Source: a virus
Lineage: Duplodnaviria; Caudoviricetes
Direction: 5' to 3' (one strand)
Length of the DNA stretch: 64,000 nt
Virus record (IMG/VR): IMGVR_UViG_3300031555_001437
The position numbers and the translations under genes are program-made. The notes under the pieces are model-generated. The model saw only the letters and a list, made by a program, of their open reading frames with translations, searched no databases and had not been told where the DNA came from. Below are positions 3,001-49,120 of the stretch, one piece after another. The first letter of the stretch is position 1, and every line of letters begins with the position of its first letter.

Positions 3001-5010
3001 TTGATGAAAGGCGAAGATGGAAAAGATGGTAAGACTTACTATACATGGGTTAAATATGCCGACGATGCATCAGGTACTAATATGTCAAACGACCCGACGG
3101 GTAAAGAATATATCGGTTTGGCGCACAATAAGGAAACTCCCACAGAAAGCACGAATGCTTCTGATTACTCATGGGCGTTGTTCAAAGGCTCTGATGGTGT
3201 AGACGGAACCGATGGTAAGGACGGCGAGACTCCTTACATTAAAGAGAGTTATTGGTGGATTGGCGCTACCAACACAAACATTAAAGCCGAAGGAGTAGAT
3301 GGCGCAGACGGCCAGAATGGCGACACTCCTTACATTAAAGATGGCTATTGGTGGATTGGTGATGTCAATACTAACATTCAGGCAGAAGGTAAGGACGGCC
3401 AAGATGGTAAGGATGGAAACAACGGGTCTACCGTTAAAGTGGAGTACCTGTATTATAGCAAACAAGATTCGAGTGCTCCATCCAAACCAGTATATCCTGG
3501 GAACGCATTGACGTTGGGATGGAGTTTTGAGCCGCAGAGTGCATCGCTGTCGTCCCCATATGTGTTTGTATCTCAATGTACGGTAATCGACGATGTGTAT
3601 GGTACTTGGTCAACTCCTACGTGTTGGGCGAAGTATGGGATAGATGGTAAGAACGGCAGTGATGCAAGTGTAACAACCATCAATATGTTTAATGCTGTTA
3701 CGAACAATGGGGCAAAGCAAGGATGTTTTGAGCTTGACAATGGTGACTTGGCTATTAATGCTTCGTATATCAAGTCTGGGCAGATTGATACAAGCTTGCT
3801 AAACGTAGATGAAATTATTAGTTCTGGAAAAATTGCTGTTATGTCGGAAATTCCAACTACAACCAGTGATTTAACCAATGACAGCGGCTTTGCATATACT
3901 TCAGATATCCCAACGGATACTCAGATTACTATTATTACGGGCGAGTACATTAAAACTGCAAGTATATATGCACAAAACTTAGAGGTCGATGCGGCTCATA
4001 TCAAGGGTTCTTTAACTATAGGACAACTACCAGATACTGTTGCTGAAAAATCAGATGTGCCAACCAAAACCAGTGATCTAACAAATGATAGTGGATTCCA
4101 GAATGCGAGTGAAGTTACAACTATTACAAATGACACGATTTCTACCACAAACGTTGTTGCACAAAATTTAACAGTCAAGGCGGCGAATATTGACGGACAG
4201 CTTACGGCAGATCAGATTAATGCGGATGGTATTAGTGCAAATAATGCCAACATAAGCGGAACGTTGACTGCTGGTAATGGTAGTTTTATTGGTCCTTTTA
4301 ATATATATGAAGATGGCATGGGAGCAGTTGGCGACTATGGAATGTCTGGAACATGGATTAGTAAACAGGGAGTGACTTGTGACAAACTAACTGCTGAGTC
4401 TGCTGAGATTAATGGAGGTAGTATTACGGCAAGTAGCGGTAGTTTAAGCGGCATGACTAGCATATCTACGGATTGGGTAGCTATTGATAGCAATAGTGTC
4501 AGCATTAGACACCCCGACGATCCATATCATTTTTGGTATCTTAGTATGTCGGCAGGAGATTCGTCTGCGTCTATTGGTGGTACTGGAGGGTCAATAAGCT
4601 TTGGGTCTGTAGTAACTCTTAATGGCACATGGGCAGCTTCGTCGTGTCTTGGGACATCTTCTGATGAAAGGGTTAAAAATAGCATACAGTCAATATCAAC
4701 CGACGAACGCTACGATGTAATGTTTGATGCTCTTGCTCCATCTGTCTACAAGTATAATGATGGAACTAGCGGAAGAACACACACTGGCTATATTGCTCAG
4801 GATGTTCTTGCTGCTGTGGAATCGGCGGGGCTAACAAGTACGGATTTTGCTGGTTATATAAAAGCTCAAACAATAAATCCAGAAACTGGTGAAGAAACAG
4901 AAACTTGCTATTTACGTTATGAGGAGTTCATTGCGTTGAACACCGCCCAAATTCAAAAGCTCAAGGCTCGTGTTGCCGAGTTGGAAGCAAAATTATTAGG
5001 AGACGCATAA
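1..5010 (+). CDS. Tail fibre / receptor-binding protein with collagen-like and tandem beta-repeat modules and C-terminal intramolecular chaperone (peptidase S74-like); 5'-truncated by window edge
   Basis: Frame is open from nt 1 (YTDASKPDTVTYTYAKQG...). It has repeated G-x-D-G-x-D-G linkers and YLWTKTTFSDG repeats, and ends in SSDERVKNSI...HTGYIAQDV...LRYEEFIAL...IQKLKARVAELE, the typical S74 chaperone plus coiled coil. Confidence 0.85.
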   Translation, partial: YTDASKPDTVTYTYAKQGADGQPGVAGTSVTVISILYQVGSSATQAPTGTNWSQNVVAVPQGKYLWSKTTFSDGNVAYGVSRQGQDGLEGSSIVWKGELSARPASGEKNWVYKDAEDGIVYICTGNGLWEPMVLDGNDGADGAPGTNGLSVFITYNDSATTPNTPTGNGTSNGWHTNATSSAIWMSQKVAKDAASGSWGAPIKIQGKDGKDGVGVSSTTVSYGTSTSATTQPTSWQSTMPNVTDGHYLWTRTITDYTDSSVADTVTYTYVKQGSKGETGSPGTSVTVTSIQYQAGESSTTAPTGTWSDTIVSAAEGKYLWTKTTFSDGKVAYGVAKQGVSGKDGSGIKKVNTHLRSYPLAWWKEHADPECTDVNWTTGTSYDNSHIKQGDTIYIVGVASDVLSASGTAVTVTLYGVAQSITSSNVTIVPSHLITSGEKGDGGKDGVGVKSSTVTYGVSDSASVKPTSWGSSMPVIGENQYLWTCTVIDYTDASIPDTVTYTYAKQGAKGETGSPGTSVKVSSIQYQAGTSATVEPTGNWSNNVVPVNEGQYLWTKTTFSDGNVAYGVAKQGTSGQKGDDAPKVTKVTKQYYLSSSSTSLTGGSWSTSPSDFTKGRYMWTRDVYSMSDGSTINGEPVIDKTFTTISGWCSANNMTLIDGANIATGTIDAEQIAAKAIKADKVDVDGVITAAEGDIKKLASEEITSTYVTAQNLKVKAANVEDKLTATQIDVTGLLTAAEGDIKNLVSETIAVTELNADNLTSGTINASVVDVTNLSADNITSGAIDASVIDVTNLDADNITTGAISFNGGDYYISVTGDSGNYLVLPGLKISQEKAQFSGSIDVNKNFIVDEYGNVTLNGSISWGAGSSPTQIVYARDAIAAPESGTQLSDFPATDADGWHTSFSQTYDYFASYTYDGGKTWTDAVNIQGKDGSKPYVEDGYWYVDGVSTGVQVTYYTWVKYADTPTSGMSNIPDGKAYIGLAHNKTSTEASEDYDDYTWSLMKGEDGKDGKTYYTWVKYADDASGTNMSNDPTGKEYIGLAHNKETPTESTNASDYSWALFKGSDGVDGTDGKDGETPYIKESYWWIGATNTNIKAEGVDGADGQNGDTPYIKDGYWWIGDVNTNIQAEGKDGQDGKDGNNGSTVKVEYLYYSKQDSSAPSKPVYPGNALTLGWSFEPQSASLSSPYVFVSQCTVIDDVYGTWSTPTCWAKYGIDGKNGSDASVTTINMFNAVTNNGAKQGCFELDNGDLAINASYIKSGQIDTSLLNVDEIISSGKIAVMSEIPTTTSDLTNDSGFAYTSDIPTDTQITIITGEYIKTASIYAQNLEVDAAHIKGSLTIGQLPDTVAEKSDVPTKTSDLTNDSGFQNASEVTTITNDTISTTNVVAQNLTVKAANIDGQLTADQINADGISANNANISGTLTAGNGSFIGPFNIYEDGMGAVGDYGMSGTWISKQGVTCDKLTAESAEINGGSITASSGSLSGMTSISTDWVAIDSNSVSIRHPDDPYHFWYLSMSAGDSSASIGGTGGSISFGSVVTLNGTWAASSCLGTSSDERVKNSIQSISTDERYDVMFDALAPSVYKYNDGTSGRTHTGYIAQDVLAAVESAGLTSTDFAGYIKAQTINPETGEETETCYLRYEEFIALNTAQIQKLKARVAELEAKLLGDA

Positions 5011-5012
5011 AT

Positions 5013-5219
5013 ATGGAAAACAAACAAGAAAAGCGTCGCAGCTTCATCCTTGACGTTGAAGACGCAAAAAACGAATTAATCAAAGCTTTTAATGATATTA
5101 TTAAAAAGTACAATATGCCGTGCTATTTCTTGGAACCGACTTTGCAAAAGCTTACTTCGGAGGCTCATAACATTGCGCTCCAAGAATTAGCTGCGGCTCG
5201 ACAGGGTGATAATTCATGA
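5013..5219 (+). CDS. Hypothetical phage protein (68 aa)
   Basis: AGGAG RBS upstream; stop overlaps the next ATG (ATGA). Confidence 0.7.
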   Translation: MENKQEKRRSFILDVEDAKNELIKAFNDIIKKYNMPCYFLEPTLQKLTSEAHNIALQELAAARQGDNS

Positions 5220-5710
5220 GAATAATCGGTATAGATGCAAGTACAAACAAGACTGGTATTGCTGTGTTAGATGACGGCAAGTATGTTACCAGTACGCTGA
5301 TTGACTTGCACAAAATGACAGATGCCAAAGTACGAATACCAAAGATGATGATGGAGATATGCGCGTATTTAGACGAGCACAAGGCAGATAAGATTGTCAT
5401 GGAGGAGTCTTGGTATGTCTCCAACATCTCTACGGTTAAGATGCTGGCGGAATTAGCAGGGGCGGTACGTTATTATGCCGCCTCTCACGGCATTGAGATT
5501 GAGTTTATGCTGCCCACGGCGTGGAGACGACGTGTGGGGCTTGTTCAGTCTGCAAAAGTAAAAAGAGAGAAATTAAAAGAAGAGGCTCTTGAAGCCGTTA
5601 AATATGAGTTCGGGTTAGATATTCCAGAAGACGAAGCTGAAGCTACGTTGATCGCAAAGGCTGGATTTAGTGTTGTTGTTGAAGAAGACGTCAACGAGTG
5701 GGTTATTTAA
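5216..5710 (+). CDS. ruvC: RuvC-like Holliday junction resolvase
   Basis: RNase H-fold motifs IIGIDASTNKTG, IVMEE, PTAWR, EDEAEA. Confidence 0.85.
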   Translation: MRIIGIDASTNKTGIAVLDDGKYVTSTLIDLHKMTDAKVRIPKMMMEICAYLDEHKADKIVMEESWYVSNISTVKMLAELAGAVRYYAASHGIEIEFMLPTAWRRRVGLVQSAKVKREKLKEEALEAVKYEFGLDIPEDEAEATLIAKAGFSVVVEEDVNEWVI

Positions 5711-6919: not shown

Positions 6920-9900
6920 ATGGCTCTAGGTTCAGATGTTCAATATAAAGCCAGCGTATTGTTTCAGGCTGCGTATGACAAAGAGTCTGCGAAAAATTTT
7001 GAAAATCGTCTCGTAGATCTTTCAAAAAACGCTGCGGAGATGTCAAAAAAAGAATTTGCCAAAGCTTTTAAGGGGCTAGGCAATATAATTAACGAGGCTC
7101 TCCGTACTTTGAAAATGCCAGAGATCGATGTGTCTAATATCTTAAAAACAAATACAAACATTGAGGCATTTAGCAAATTGGGCGAGGAGTTTGGTGAGAG
7201 TTTTAACGCGGGCATTGAGCTTGCTTTAACGAATAACGGAAACATTAACAAACTTTTAGAAATAAAAAGAAGAGAGCTTGAGAAAAGTTCTTTGTATAAA
7301 GCAACACAACGCGCACATGCCATCAAACATCTCACAAAAGATGGAGAAGCATACAATATTAGATCTGGAAATATCCGTGGTAGAGACTTTTCAAATACAG
7401 AAACTGAGAACATTGCTGCGGAGATGGATGATATTTATAAAAATATCGAAAATCTTGCGGTTGCTTTAAAGTCGATAAATAGTAAAACACATCCAGATGA
7501 GTTCAGAGCAAAATTTAATAGTTTGCAAGACGAGATTACGAAGTACATAGAAGGCGTTGTTGGATTACAAGATATCCCCTCTTTGTCTACAAATCCTAAA
7601 TACACAGTTAAATCACTTAGACAGCTGACAGCTAAATATGGTTTTGATGAAGAATATTGGGAAACAGTATTTAAAAGTTATCAAAAAAATCTCAAAGAGA
7701 AACAAGGGACAGAAGCATACACTAGAATGCTTGAACTCGAAGATGCTATCAGTAAACTAGAAGCACAAGCTAAATACGCATCAAAGTCTATTCGAGATAT
7801 TACTCAGGCAGTAGGGGAAATGTCTTCTTTGAGTCGACCAGAGCAAAAGAAAAAAGTTAAGGGTGTTGAGCAAGTAATTTCTGATGTTGAAAGCGGAAAA
7901 GCTGGACAGGTTGGAAGGGCGTTTAATCAATATAAGGATGCTAAGGATGCGGGCTCTGACTGGGTTACGATGTATTCAAAAGCCCTGAAGTTCTTGACTG
8001 CGTTCAACGCAATGAACCCAGAAAAACAGTTAACTGCAGAAAGAGACTGGCGTATACTGGCGGAACGTCTTAACCCGATGTTTGACCAGATAAAGAGTTC
8101 ACTGGAGTTATTTGTTCAGACTGCAAATGCGCGTCTATATCCTCCTTCTGGAGGTGGAGATGGCACTGGCGGAGGCACAGGTGGCGGTTCTGGCTCTGGT
8201 ATAGGTGCTGGAGGAAGCGGCTCTGGAGGCGTTGGTGCTGGTACACAGCCAGAGCAATCTAATAACGCTCCTAAAATAGAAGAAGAGAACAATGCTCTTA
8301 AAGAAAAACTAAATCTTCTCAAACAAATTGCTGCTGCATATGAATATCAGGCGGATGCCGAATTGGACGACAATGACCAAGAGTGGGATAACGCTAGAGA
8401 GTCAGTAGAGGAGTTTGAAAATGCATATTATTCGGCTATTGTCACTATGCAAGATGGCTCTAAGGTTGAGTTGTTGCTGGACGATGAATTTGCTGAAACG
8501 GCTCAGAATATTTTGGCTGATGCAAAAAATATTCAAAATATAGACCTTGTACCGAAGAGCGCCGAAGCTGCGATTCAAGCATATAATCATGTTGAGCAAG
8601 TACAAGCAAATATTCGTTCTTCTTTGAGTAGGTCGTGGAGTCAGCCAATTAATGGCAAAACAGAAGATGCTCTATTGTATTTAGGTCGGACGAGAACGAT
8701 GTTGGAAACTGCTATTTCCAACATGAACCAGGGTGATCCAGACGGTTCATGGGATTTCTCTGGCGCACAACAAACCGCAACCCAGTTGCTGTCTACAATT
8801 GAAGACATGCAGCAAAAGTTTGCGATGATGTTGCAAACAGAGCATAAGTTAAAAGAAATGAATATCACCCCTGACGCAGAACATTATTATGATGTTGTTG
8901 AAGGAATTAAAAATAACACGCTTACTACTGTCGACCAGTGCATTGCGAAGTATAAAGAGCTAGCTGGAATTGTTGATGTTGTAGACGATAAGACGGATAC
9001 AACTCCCGAAACTGGCAGAGGCGCAGGAGATGAAAGTGGCTCTGGTGGTTTTGGTTCTGGTTCTGGCGATGGAGGTGGCGGTGGTCCAAATGATGGGGAG
9101 CTCAAAAACCTCGAGGCTATTGAATCTGTGGTTGGACGTATTAAAACGGCGGTAGGTGAAAAATCGAAAGCGTTCTTAGAAGAGCAGGTCATTGTAAAGA
9201 GAGTCGCACAGTCTGAAGTCCATTCTTTGGGTGAAGTAGAGAAAAAAGTTAATGCCGTAAGAGTAGCGCTAGAGCGTATTTGTGGTGGTAAGATTAGCTC
9301 TGGCATGATGACCATCAACATCAAGACTAGCGGAAATGGCAGTGGCAAGAAGCCTGGAACTGCTAAGAGCGGTATGGATGATGAGATTTTTGACGCTAAA
9401 ATCGCAACACAATTCTCAAAGTTATTTTTAATGACAGAGCAACTCAGAGCGTCTGGTAAACTAACCGACACGGTTAGAGACAAACTAGATTTACTCTGGG
9501 ATGATTTAAATAATGTGAGCGACGCTAAGTCTCTTACACTATGGAGAGAAGAGTTTGCTCAGATTAATAATGAGATTAAAGAAATTGCTCTTGCAAATAA
9601 ATCTGTTGAAGATGTTGACGTAGACCCGTTTAGTGCTGCACTTGAAAATGCAAAATTATATAACAAGTTTGTGCTGAAAATGCACGGAACTAATGACGCC
9701 GAACTCAAGAATAAATACGAAACGATGGCAAACGATCTTCTAGTTGAGCAGTCTCAGTTGTTAAATGGGATTGTACTAACCAAAGAGCAAGAGAAGCAGC
9801 TAGATGATTTGAAAAATCAAAGAGAGCTTGATATTCTTGAATTACAAAAGAAGCAGGAACTGCAGGCCAAAAAGGCTGCAGATGCAAAAGCCAAAAACGA

Positions 9901-11176
9901 GATAATAGAGGCAAATAAAAAACTGGGTCAGTTGCAAGCGCAGCAAGAACAAGCTCCAAAAGAAATTCAAGGTTCTTTTGACTACTTAATTAACCAACAG
10001 AAACAAATCATAGAAGACAAGTCTAAGTTGTTGAGTATAGATAAAGAATTGTACGATGCAGATCGTGTTAAAGCGTACAATGAAGCAATCGGAAGACTTA
10101 AGATTGAAGAGGCTAAAGCTAATCACAGAGAGGATATTAGTGAGTCCAATCGTACGTTTAGACGCCAAGTAGCAAACTCTAGAACGAATGCGCAGTTATC
10201 AAGATCTCGCTCTACGGTTTTTGCAGGGCAGGAGATTATCAGTAATCTTGATAAGATAAAAAATGCCGTTGGTGTCACAGAAGCCAGCAAGGCAAAAATA
10301 AATGAATTGCGCGGCGCTTTGGATGACCTAAAGCAAACATATAACACTCTTAATAATCAGGCTGAACCAATTTCTAAAGAAGACGCCGATAAAGTTATTA
10401 GTCAAACAAACAATGTTCGTCTGCTAAATGCAGAAATGAAAAAGCTGTTAGAGCAACATCAGAAATTGAGCGGAGACAATGTTGATGTTATTGGGGTATA
10501 TAGCCCCAAAATGACCAGAAAAGATATAGAAGATCAAACCCTAGAATGGTACAAAAAAATGCACCAGCAAAACCCAGACGAATATAAGGGTATTAATATC
10601 AAAGGGTTTGACGATAACGGGAATTTAATTGCATCGCTAAAATCTGGTGCAAAAGAGTTTACTAATATTTCTGTAGCTGTCGACAAACTGTCTGGTAACA
10701 TAGCTGTTGTTCGTGGCCAGGTCAAAAAGACTCTTGGCCCTGTTGATTTGATTATCGATAAAACAAAACAGTTAGGATATTATTTAACTGGTTCATTTTT
10801 GATTAATTTTGCTAGGCAGCAGGTTCAAAAGGGAATTCAGTATGTAAGAGAAATTGATAGTGCTTTAACTGACTTAAAAAAAGTAACAGATGAAACAGAA
10901 GAAACATATGAAAAATTTTTGGATACAGCGAGTAAAACTGCAGACAAGGTAGGAAGTACGATAAAGGAAATTGTAAGTTCTACTGCAGATTGGAGCCGTC
11001 TTGGTTATTCTCTCGAAGATGCGGCAAAGCTTGCAGAAACAACTTCTGTTCTGTTGAATGTATCTGAATTTTCAAGTATAGACGAAGCAACGAGTGCACT
11101 GACCAGTACGTTGCAGGCGTTTGGATATACGGCAGATAACGCTATGGGCGTTGTAGATGTCATGAACGAAGTGGGT
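6920..11176 (+). CDS. Tail tape measure protein, exon 1 (1419 codons)
   Basis: GAGGAGG RBS; long coiled coil; TP901-type TMP core (IDSALTDLKKVTDET...STADWSRLGYSL...VVDVMNEVG) breaks off at the intron 5' splice site. Confidence 0.9.
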
Positions 11177-43901: not shown

Positions 43902-44519
43902 TTATTTTTTATCTGCAAATAACCATTTATAACAGTCTGCCTTTGTCAGCCACGACACACCAAAGAAAAATAGCGCGATAGTTTCCATTAACCAGACTTG
44001 AATATCAAACGCGGGAAGTAGCAACAATCCAAACGATAGCACCATACCAATTCCGCAAATTCGATAAATGATATTTCTAATCTTCTTGTTTCTCGTCATA
44101 TTTCCAGAGCTTTTTGTAAATTGGAAGAATGAATTATATGCCAAAATGCCAAAGAACAGAACAGCGCAGATGTAGTGTAATGTGTCGCTGATATGCATGG
44201 GAATTAAGAATGTGCCAACCAGATCGTTTGCACTATATCCTGGCACCCAGCACGGGAATAGACAAATGCCAAGTCCACAGATTCCAGCACAGGTGTTTAA
44301 AATGTCATCCACGATGTCATAGCCTTTGTAGCACATCAGCAAAATGCCAGCGGCGCCTAAAATAATCATAAACGGAGTACATGCATTTGTATACCATGTC
44401 GCAGAGATAGATGTAGGCCACATAAATACGGCGTTACATAGTTGCAGGAGTACGACAATCCATGGCAGCGCCCATCCAAGCCATCCGATTGCGCATCTTA
44501 ATCTTGTTGTGTTAATCAT
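43902..44519 (-). CDS. Multi-pass membrane protein (DUF998-like)
   Basis: About 6 TM helices; SIS.TWY, LFP, LHYICAVLFF, ET.AL..FG.SWL.K. Confidence 0.75.
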   Translation of the reverse strand: MINTTRLRCAIGWLGWALPWIVVLLQLCNAVFMWPTSISATWYTNACTPFMIILGAAGILLMCYKGYDIVDDILNTCAGICGLGICLFPCWVPGYSANDLVGTFLIPMHISDTLHYICAVLFFGILAYNSFFQFTKSSGNMTRNKKIRNIIYRICGIGMVLSFGLLLLPAFDIQVWLMETIALFFFGVSWLTKADCYKWLFADKK

Positions 44520-44550
44520 AAAACTGTCTCCTTATATTGTTCAATAAGTA

Positions 44551-44625
44551 TGGTCGAGATGACAGGAATCGAACCTGCTTGATCTAGTTCCCAAAACTAG
44601 CGCGTAGCCAATACGCTACATCTCG
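44551..44625 (-). tRNA. tRNA-Pro(UGG)
   Basis: Cloverleaf; CTAGT-TTTGGGA-ACTAG; GTTCGATTC; encoded CCA. Confidence 0.92.
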
Positions 44626-44628
44626 ATA

Positions 44629-44704
44629 TGGCTGGGAGTACTGGATTTGAACCAGTGTAATGCGGCAGTCAAAGTGCCGTGCCTTGCCTCTTGGCGAACT
44701 CCCA
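44629..44704 (-). tRNA. tRNA-Gln(UUG)
   Basis: CGGCA-CTTTGAC-TGCCG; GTTCAAATC; CCA. Confidence 0.92.
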
Positions 44705-44712
44705 ATGTTGAA

Positions 44713-45385
44713 TGGTGATTTTTAACTATTTCTAGAGGTCAACCACCTTAACCTTGTTGTCTGCGCCAACAGACAACGAAAGGACTTTATATGACGAACA
44801 TTGACGCGCCCAACAACCGCTAATGATAAGTAGCGATACGGTATTTTTAGATGCTCCGCAGCCTCAAATAATGTGAACCCGACCTTTTATGTGTCGTATA
44901 TCGGGTAACGACTATCCCTGTTGTTGGCTTTTGCCCTTGTCGGGCTAACTTGTAGTTCAATATGGTTCACCGCTCCATATCAGTTCTCTTATGAACTTCT
45001 CAATCTGCGACTTTCATCTCATATTTATTACCCGCATTCGATGTTGTCTGTTCTTATGAATGATTGAGTTCTGCACTTTCAACCGCCAGTCGTTTGCGGT
45101 TTACGCTACTTTTAAAGCCGTGCGATTGCAACATACTTGTCTAACGTTGGGCCGTTCATCTCACTCCGTTACCACAGCTCTTATCACCTATCCGTTTATC
45201 AGCTTACGTATTTTTTAATTATTAACCACTTCTCACAAAACGGCGTCGGCTTCGTGGCACCCAACTCTTGATTAGGCGCAAGAGAACGCCACTTTGGATG
45301 GGTTTTAGGTCTCCAGCCCGACTTTGAACTTTCTTGTTCTGGCAACCCAAGAGAAGGCTACGGGGAACATCCCCGTTCGACGCCA
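44713..45385 (-). ncRNA. Large ornate structured ncRNA candidate (ROOL/GOLLD-like context)
   Basis: ~670 nt with no ORF of 60 aa or more, inside the tRNA operon; many hairpins and long-range pairings (GGCGTCG/CGACGCC, CCAACAAC/GTTGTTGG, GTTGTCTG/CAGACAAC, CCCGA/TCGGG, AACCGC/GCGGTT); ends in ACCA. Confidence 0.6.
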
Positions 45386-45390
45386 GGAGC

Positions 45391-45507
45391 TAGTCACTTT
45401 TAGATTGGATTCGAACCAATGTCTCCAGTTTATCCGACTGGTGTTCTACCTCTAAACTACATCTCTAATTATTTGCAGAGACAACATGATATTGCTGTAA
45501 GTGACTA
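45391..45507 (-). ncRNA. ACAGCAA-stem RNA E1 enclosing tRNA D/anticodon(GAU)/T arms (Y-RNA-like)
   Basis: TAGTCACTT-ACAGCAA...AAGTGACTA terminal stem; internal TAGTTTAGAGGTAGAAC, CCAGT-CGGATAA-ACTGG, ATTGG-TTCGAAT-CCAAT; no acceptor stem or CCA. Confidence 0.7.
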
Positions 45508-45510
45508 TTA

Positions 45511-45584
45511 TGGCAGGGGAGGAGAGGATTGAACTCCCAGTCGCGGTTTTGGAGACCGCTGGTTTACCATTAACCGACTCCCCT
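45511..45584 (-). tRNA. tRNA-Trp(CCA)
   Basis: GCGGT-CTCCAAA-ACCGC; CCA end. Confidence 0.92.
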
Positions 45585-45590
45585 GTGTGA

Positions 45591-45666
45591 TGGTGTGCCC
45601 TGGGAGATTTGAACTCCCGACACCATGATTAAAAGTCATGTGATCTACCATCTGATCTAAGGGCAC
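45591..45666 (-). tRNA. tRNA-Lys(UUU)
   Basis: CATGA-CTTTTAA-TCATG; GTTCAAATC; CCA. Confidence 0.93.
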
Positions 45667-45671
45667 ATATT

Positions 45672-45772
45672 TGGAGCGGAGTGACAATTTCAGTCATATT
45701 CGTACTTCTTAAGTTTCAAAAGAGTAACTATCCAGTCTACTTTCATAAGAAGCCAACTTATTAAGTTTCCGC
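45672..45772 (-). ncRNA. Atypical tRNA-like RNA with CCA end (101 nt)
   Basis: GCGGA/TCCGC + T-CCA; D-like hairpin, long GCTTCTTA/TAAGAAGT arm, TGAC-TGAAATT-GTCA T-like arm; abuts the tRNA-Arg CCA. Confidence 0.5.
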
Positions 45773-45848
45773 TGGTACCACTTGAGAGACTCGAACTCCC
45801 GACACAAGGATTAGAAATCCTTTGCTCTTCCGTCTGAGCTAAAGAGGC
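45773..45848 (-). tRNA. tRNA-Arg(UCU)
   Basis: AAGGA-TTTCTAA-TCCTT; GTTCGAGTC; CCA. Confidence 0.92.
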
Positions 45849-49002: not shown

Positions 49003-49120
49003 TGGGGGCTGCAAGACTCGAACTTGCGACCTCGGAGTTACCAGCTCAAATGTAAAATTGCAGTTTAAGATTTTGTCAAACCTCAATTATACGCGCTCTA
49101 TCCAACTGAGCTAAGCCCCC
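49003..49120 (-). ncRNA. tRNA-scaffold RNA E7: Ile-like body, GGU anticodon loop, 44-nt ACTGCAA-stem insertion in the anticodon stem
   Basis: GGGGGCT/AGCCCCC acceptor with no encoded CCA; CG|insert 49048-49091|GAG-CTGGTAA-CTCCG; insert contains TGAGGTTT-GACA-AAATCTTA-A-ACTGCAA. Confidence 0.75.

Follow-up and report, generated by a model that had tools for sequence, protein, structure and literature searches.

The species 1 and 2 RNAs of phage T4 are small, stable and structured non-tRNA RNAs of the phage tRNA cluster that are co-transcribed with the phage tRNAs and released by tRNA-processing enzymes. In the tRNA islands of large phages of gut Firmicutes, GOLLD and ROOL are, to our knowledge, the only non-tRNA RNAs named so far. 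GOLLD (RF02032) is a large, ORF-free structured RNA of phage tRNA islands that consists of separate 5' and 3' domains split by a variable linker, which sometimes holds tRNAs (bioRxiv 10.1101/2024.12.08.627333). ROOL (RF03087) is of the same size class as the RNA described here and also occurs in phages and prophages near tRNA islands. A catalogue of 8,495 covariation-supported candidates, tRNA-like ones included, has been drawn from IMG/VR (Fremin et al. 2023, PMC10690425), the same source as the viral contigs searched in this work.

The DNA analysed (the window) comprises 64,000 nt of a large gut phage with a contig of approximately 165 kb (contigs of relatives, 155–177 kb). The genome encodes a DnaE-type polymerase, NrdD, an amidase endolysin and a serine recombinase, and from approximately 32 kb on all genes of the window are located on the minus strand. 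Like GOLLD, the stretch under study is located inside the tRNA array of a phage contig. The elements of the stretch and its boundaries are listed below, 5' to 3' along the minus strand.

46008-45511, minus strand: genes for tRNA-Gly, Ile, Arg, Lys and Trp (ARAGORN and Rfam tRNA model)
45506-45392, minus strand: tRNA-like RNA with no acceptor end, the 5' boundary (Rfam tRNA model; closing stem read directly)
45391-44705, minus strand: the ORF-free stretch, approximately 690 nt, with the tRNA-like RNA 5' and tRNA-Gln 3' of it
45329..45386, minus strand: module C, a 58-nt pseudoknot (iterated nhmmer)
45386-45382 with 45343-45339, minus strand: 5' pentamer of module C paired with the loop of its hairpin C2 (compensatory pair sets)
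45376-45360, minus strand: hairpin C1, between the pentamer and C2; also present in L109 and L167
45356-45329, minus strand: hairpin C2, its stem with one compensatory change
45265..45284, minus strand: hairpin H1, immediately 5' of A-B, with a stem of 6 bp and an 8-nt loop that is conserved
45146..45265, minus strand: A-B scaffold module, approximately 120 nt (covariance model R1 and alignment A2)
45265-45260 with 45151-45146, minus strand: helix P1, which closes A-B
45261-45248, minus strand: conserved 5' strand of A-B, a 14-nt word beginning GGUGC
approximately 45247-45181, minus strand: variable insert of A-B, enclosed by helix P2
45180-45149, minus strand: conserved 3' strand of A-B, approximately 30 nt ending AGCC and containing the 3' side of P2
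44929..45145, minus strand: segment X, approximately 215 nt with several predicted hairpins, the interval from A-B to D
44808..44928, minus strand: module D, approximately 120 nt, pseudoknotted (compared with G001/L167, L095 and L223)
44927-44920 with 44817-44810, minus strand: closing helix of D, conserved
44756..44777, minus strand: 8-bp local hairpin in the spacer (read from the sequence)
44714..44754, minus strand: pre-tRNA-Gln pseudoknot, 41 nt with three helices (alignment A4)
44629..44704, minus strand: tRNA-Gln(UUG), the 3' boundary (ARAGORN and Rfam tRNA model)

A preliminary description of this DNA had proposed a non-coding RNA without ORF in an otherwise tightly packed genome and within the tRNA operon, and both statements hold. 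The longest ORFs inside 45391-44705 comprise at most 52 aa and none is credible; no match to a PHROG family was obtained for them, and the genome around the stretch is packed with minus-strand genes. The stretch is flanked by tRNAs of the same strand, and a tRNA-Pro also belongs to the array, following tRNA-Gln on the minus strand. At the 5' boundary, the Rfam tRNA model matches 45403-45460 with 44.8 bits at model positions 7-64 only, indicating a tRNA body without acceptor stem, which is enclosed by a 9-bp outer stem (45503-45495 with 45400-45392). A scan of the minus strand between the flanking tRNAs yielded no promoter-like or terminator-like site, indicating that the stretch would be part of the tRNA operon transcript. 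Upstream of the array, a promoter-like site matching 12 of 12 consensus positions is present at 49191-49163, and transcription of the stretch would most likely start there. A metallophosphoesterase gene and a DUF2828/TROVE-like gene lie upstream in the same operon, the latter 1.5 kb from the stretch. The fold energy gave a weak signal that was not strand-specific (z = -2.2 for the minus and -3.9 for the plus strand). Elsewhere in the window, the tRNA model matched 49003-49120 on the minus strand with 45.7 bits across 118 nt with no ARAGORN call; the spread of this match indicates a tRNA scaffold with an insertion of approximately 45 nt.

The preliminary description had left the choice between ROOL, GOLLD and a new family. 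When the 64-kb window was searched against Rfam 15 at gathering score, only tRNAs were obtained, and with permissive filters (E≤10, 44500-45800) the stretch was overlapped by chance-level matches only. The models of ROOL, OLE, RNase P RNA, tmRNA and group I/II introns had no match in the stretch at E≤10. The GOLLD model, with a gathering score of 150 bits, matched neither the window at gathering nor 44500-45800 at E≤10. As a positive control, the same search recovered GOLLD in locus L136 at 155.3 bits, so that ROOL, GOLLD, OLE, RNase P RNA, tmRNA and the introns are excluded as far as the models reach. An Rfam scan of the homologous loci L090 and L095, of 16 further loci and of the array in L099 likewise gave no ROOL or other family for the modules. 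Thus ROOL and GOLLD were not borne out, and the part of the proposal that stands is the absence of a known family. Rfam holds no family for any of the modules, and a limited search of the literature found no description of them. The stretch is real structured non-coding RNA of no known family.

Relatives of the stretch were reached through short conserved words, and the set of homologues is ascertained accordingly. When the whole stretch, the A-B module and the GOLLD match in L136 were compared by blastn with 50,697 deposited phage genomes, nothing useful was returned, and the 86 loci anchored on the DUF2828 gene (53–78% protein identity) had almost no sequence in common with the stretch. The best matches to the whole stretch were L090 (nhmmer E 6e-15, covering most of the query) and L095; a single metagenome scan yielded three loci, with no close relative of the full stretch among them. 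In locus L004, the DUF2828 protein is 97% identical and the DNA 92% identical to that of the window up to 46015 (L004 3036-4068), and precisely from the first tRNA of the array on all similarity is lost, which marks the island as a hot spot for exchange. The array of L004 carries instead a different tRNA-Ile(UAU) and an ORF of 227 aa. The tRNA arrays of L001, L002, L005 and L167 contain many gaps of 500–1500 nt without tRNA or ORF; an Rfam scan of these gaps in L001 and L002 gave no match, and some gaps hold isolated fragments of a T arm plus CCA, e.g. L005 8620-8692.

The best documented element of the stretch is the A-B scaffold, a widespread phage RNA motif that is absent from Rfam. P2 runs on from P1 along the 5' strand and encloses the insert, P1 and P2 being coaxial, and whole modules range from 71 to 195 nt. 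In alignment A2 (33 copies, MAFFT, no structural input), 97.8% of the cells in the helices are paired, compared with 20–61% in controls with slid partners, and 78 cells are altered on both sides, a number reached by none of 500 shuffles. Four columns of P1 have AU, UA, GC and CG all at high frequency, and the central pair of P2 occurs as UA in 16 copies, CG in 14, AU in two and GC in one. One U-G and one G-U pair, both invariant, identify the minus strand of the window as the RNA strand. Approximately 60 nt of the junction are near-invariant across phages that have little else in common. Mutual information among 53 distinct copies revealed no pairs outside P1 and P2. An A-B copy of L099 (9447-9554) carries A-U in place of the invariant G-C at the inner end of P1, with both sides changed.

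Covariance model R1 matches the window at 45269-45142 with 81.8 bits (E 2.6e-18), which holds by construction as this copy is in the seed alignment; independent support for the motif comes from the matches outside the seed. In total, R1 identified 59 copies in 46 loci at E of approximately 1e-7 to 1e-24, with one to four or more per locus. The 64-kb window contains a single copy. Tandem copies occur in L126 and L138 (three each) and in L099 (up to five), where 8980-10144 is a 1.2-kb tandem array of five A-B modules and one module C with no tRNA within 1.5 kb. The nearest tRNA is encoded on the same strand as A-B for 49 of 49 copies with a tRNA found in the locus, and lies within 500 nt for 34 of the 59 copies. 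At seven loci (L128, L129, L141, L148, L150, L152 and L156) a perfect TTGACA-17-TATAAT consensus precedes P1 by a few bases, and A-B is followed by more than 700 nt of ORF-free, hairpin-rich sequence; no Rfam match was found in this sequence in the three loci scanned (L128, L141 and L150). Copies of A-B were also present on contigs, probably of phages, that had been binned in gut MAGs of Clostridia, Eubacteriales, Acholeplasmatales and Bacteroidales from sheep, goat, rabbit and human. The main text of the IMG/VR catalogue (PMC10690425) describes no motif of this kind, and A-B may be among the candidates left unnamed there.

The TROVE-like DUF2828 gene in the same operon recalls the bacterial Y RNAs, the partners of Ro60/TROVE proteins. 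However, A-B occurs in only 4 of the 86 DUF2828 loci, and DUF2828 is near only 7 of 38 A-B loci. ORF clustering within 6 kb of these 38 loci identified no regular neighbour that would qualify as a partner protein, and the Y RNA models had no match in 44500-45800 at E≤10. In L136, the GOLLD match (5016-5531) shares a tRNA island with two A-B copies (3176-3313 and 4456-4607), the nearer of which ends 409 nt upstream of GOLLD. The 15 other A-B loci scanned lack GOLLD, and A-B was thus rejected as the 5' domain of that RNA. Further candidates were dropped by eye: a tRNA minihelix mimic, given the mirrored strand topology and the lack of a CCA after P1; and a crRNA-repeat mimic, since P2 covaries and its sequence is therefore not fixed. 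A k-turn, a sarcin-ricin loop and a kissing interaction of the C1 loop with the A-B junction were likewise weighed by eye and given up for want of fit or of a test. Self-cleaving ribozymes were dropped as no Rfam match was present.

Module C was matched in L099, L132 and L151 by iterated nhmmer (E 1e-13 to 1e-18). The pairing between its pentamer and the C2 loop is held through three different sets of pairs, in the window, in L099 and in L132/L151, indicating that C is a pseudoknot; the number of homologues behind this module, as behind module D, is only four. C is located 5' of A-B in the window and in L099, and 3' of an A-B copy in L132 and L151. The loop and stem of hairpin H1 are kept in L090, L095, L005, L164, L165 and L166, with substitutions on both sides of the stem; in L111, L115 and L106, A-B follows a hairpin that resembles H1.

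Inside its closing helix, module D contains an H-type pseudoknot, a part that varies and a terminal hairpin with 5 bp and a loop of 8 nt. The copy in G001/L167 is 84% identical (E 4e-32), and further copies are present in L095 and L223. The pairing of the hairpin loop with a downstream pentamer occurs in three unrelated sets of sequence, in the window/L167, L095 and L223. D precedes tRNA-Ser(GCU) in L095 and L167; in L223 it follows a protein gene and stands immediately 5' of tRNA-Gln, with no A-B nearby. In three of four loci it ends 8–10 nt from tRNA-Ser or tRNA-Gln. In the window, alignment with L167, L095 and L090 showed that the spacer containing the hairpin 44756..44777 replaces the tRNA-Ser(GCU) of the relatives. 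The same arrangement, likewise lacking tRNA-Ser(GCU), is found in L173, a JGI metagenome contig reached through the 205-aa protein encoded downstream, which covers only the last 186 nt of the stretch and is identical there. No homologue of segment X was found in more than 220 loci with nhmmer and filters off, and its fold z-score is -1.9; in L095 and G001 its place is taken by linkers of other lengths (95 to approximately 200 nt) and other sequence.

The pre-tRNA-Gln pseudoknot ends 10 nt before the 5' end of tRNA-Gln. In alignment A4 (nine loci, eight distinct sequences), all 14 of its 14 pairs are 100% standard, with three changes on both sides, and slid controls pair at 35–49%. The window differs from the other loci at seven positions, six of which form three compensating pairs, the seventh giving G-U. 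In every locus with a downstream tRNA found, the distance between pseudoknot and tRNA is 4–14 nt. The pseudoknot occurs without the remaining modules in L005, L161, L162 and L166. In L161 and L162 it fronts tRNA-Ser(ACU) and not tRNA-Gln, indicating that it is not tied to one tRNA identity. L166 (reverse complement, approximately 1080-1600) carries between H1 and the pseudoknot an ORF with its own ribosome-binding site, at the position at which related islands have A-B, D and tRNA-Ser.

With these modules defined, the architecture of the preliminary description, a single ornate RNA of approximately 670 nt with a 5' domain of 145 nt and a second domain of approximately 520 nt, was not upheld. 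The complementary words on which it was based are present (45383-45377 with 45247-45241; 45229-45217 with 44732-44717). However, the helix said to close the 5' domain has no counterpart in L099, the only homologue with the same module order (C, then A-B), where the complementary word is missing; its 5' strand overlaps the covarying C pseudoknot, and its 3' strand is taken from the beginning of the A-B insert. The closure of the larger domain would join the A-B insert to one strand of the covarying pre-tRNA-Gln pseudoknot. The ACCA described as its 3' end belongs to that same pseudoknot and reads GCCA or GCCC in relatives, indicating that it is not conserved. Instead of two domains, the homologues exhibit independent, self-closed modules. 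Of the checks proposed at the time, the comparison with Rfam assigned no family, and the covariation expected among collected homologues was found within modules (A-B, C, D and the pre-tRNA pseudoknot) and not seen between them. There is thus a structured RNA region here, and the preliminary observation is confirmed in part.

The stretch contains at least five autonomous modules: C, H1, A-B, D and the pre-tRNA-Gln pseudoknot. Other phages carry them in varying combinations, order and number of copies; more than 40 loci have A-B and no D, and L223 has D and no A-B. These modules are conserved autonomous folds that assort independently and accompany same-strand tRNA genes. The explanation that we favour, as probable though by no means secure, is that the stretch consists of autonomous structured RNA modules in a mosaic array, co-transcribed with the phage tRNA genes. 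Each module would close on itself by its own helix or pseudoknot, and related phages would have gained, lost and reshuffled modules, in which case the 690 nt would not be one co-evolving fold. Cuts by RNase P and RNase Z at the flanking tRNAs would free the stretch, that of RNase P at the 5' end of tRNA-Gln generating its 3' end, and the released modules may persist as small stable RNAs. In trans, they could bind a protein or tRNA, as a platform or as a decoy; alternatively, they may be leaders guiding the maturation of the adjacent tRNA. Judged from genomic context, small stable RNAs freed by tRNA processing are our best guess as to function. The T4 species 1 and 2 RNAs offer a parallel by description; the modules found here are different RNAs, several of them pseudoknotted.

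For A-B, the coaxial helices P1 and P2 would hold the near-invariant junction nucleotides around a freely variable insert. An invariant junction around an arbitrary insert argues for a specific partner recognising the scaffold, and since A-B keeps so strictly to a tRNA context, the simplest guess is that this partner has to do with tRNA. Candidates would be a processing or repair enzyme, a host anticodon nuclease and tRNA itself. Tentatively, A-B could represent a new functional RNA class of large gut phages, with a junction that forms a specific pocket or platform binding a protein, a small ligand or the tRNA elbow, or that is catalytic; used as single copies or as tandem arrays, with interchangeable inserts, it would serve as display or decoy tied to tRNA islands. 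Some observations run counter to the mosaic reading. Segment X, one third of the stretch, has no homologue or supported structure, and the order A-B, linker, D is common to three phages (the window, L095 and G001). In addition, C and A-B are found together in several loci, so that some higher-order unit is possible.

It appears unlikely that the modules are merely cis-acting leaders or spacers of the tRNA operon, directing or protecting processing by RNase P, Z or E or stabilising transcript 5' ends, and functionless once cut off. The short distances of the pre-tRNA pseudoknot and of D from the following tRNA would fit such a role, as would loci of the L128/L141/L150 type, at which A-B begins a few nucleotides from the start expected of the promoter-like site. 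However, the approximately 60 near-invariant unpaired nucleotides of A-B suggest a specific partner and not a generic stabiliser, the A-B array of L099 is remote from any tRNA, and the window keeps D though its tRNA-Ser is gone.

We regard as quite improbable a single large RNA of a new, GOLLD-like class, in which C, H1 and A-B would form the 5' part, D the 3' part and X the variable linker, functioning as a whole unit and perhaps as a multimer. The shared order of the three phages, which continues after D with tRNA-Ser (where present), the pseudoknot and tRNA-Gln, leaves this alternative some weight; co-transcription of the stretch, the absence of internal signals and the comparable division of GOLLD into two domains and a variable linker, sometimes with tRNAs, are in line with it. 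Against it stand the independent occurrence of A-B and D, the position of C on either side of A-B, tandem arrays of three to five A-B copies, the lack of visible covariation between modules and the failure of both proposed long-range closures. That the stretch is non-functional sequence, left by tRNA gene decay and recombination within a hypervariable island, is very hard to credit: the island is indeed hypervariable, tRNA-Ser has been lost here and X has no homologue, but four modules are kept across divergent phages with compensatory changes, and neither ARAGORN nor the Rfam tRNA model (E≤10) detected a tRNA remnant inside 44705-45391, only the flanking elements, so that this explanation is largely refuted for C, A-B, D and the pre-tRNA pseudoknot and possible for X alone.

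Large phages of gut Firmicutes give kilobases of their tRNA islands to RNA other than tRNA, and the stretch described here shows that apparently empty regions of such islands can hold a library of small folds, each autonomous and several pseudoknotted, which shuffle between phages. With its number of copies, its covariation and covariance model, approximately 60 invariant nucleotides and a tolerated insertion site, A-B is ready for work at the bench, and as a natural insert-tolerant scaffold it might serve RNA engineering. Should a host or phage factor prove to be bound by the scaffold, a new player would join the tRNA-centred arms race between phages and bacteria.
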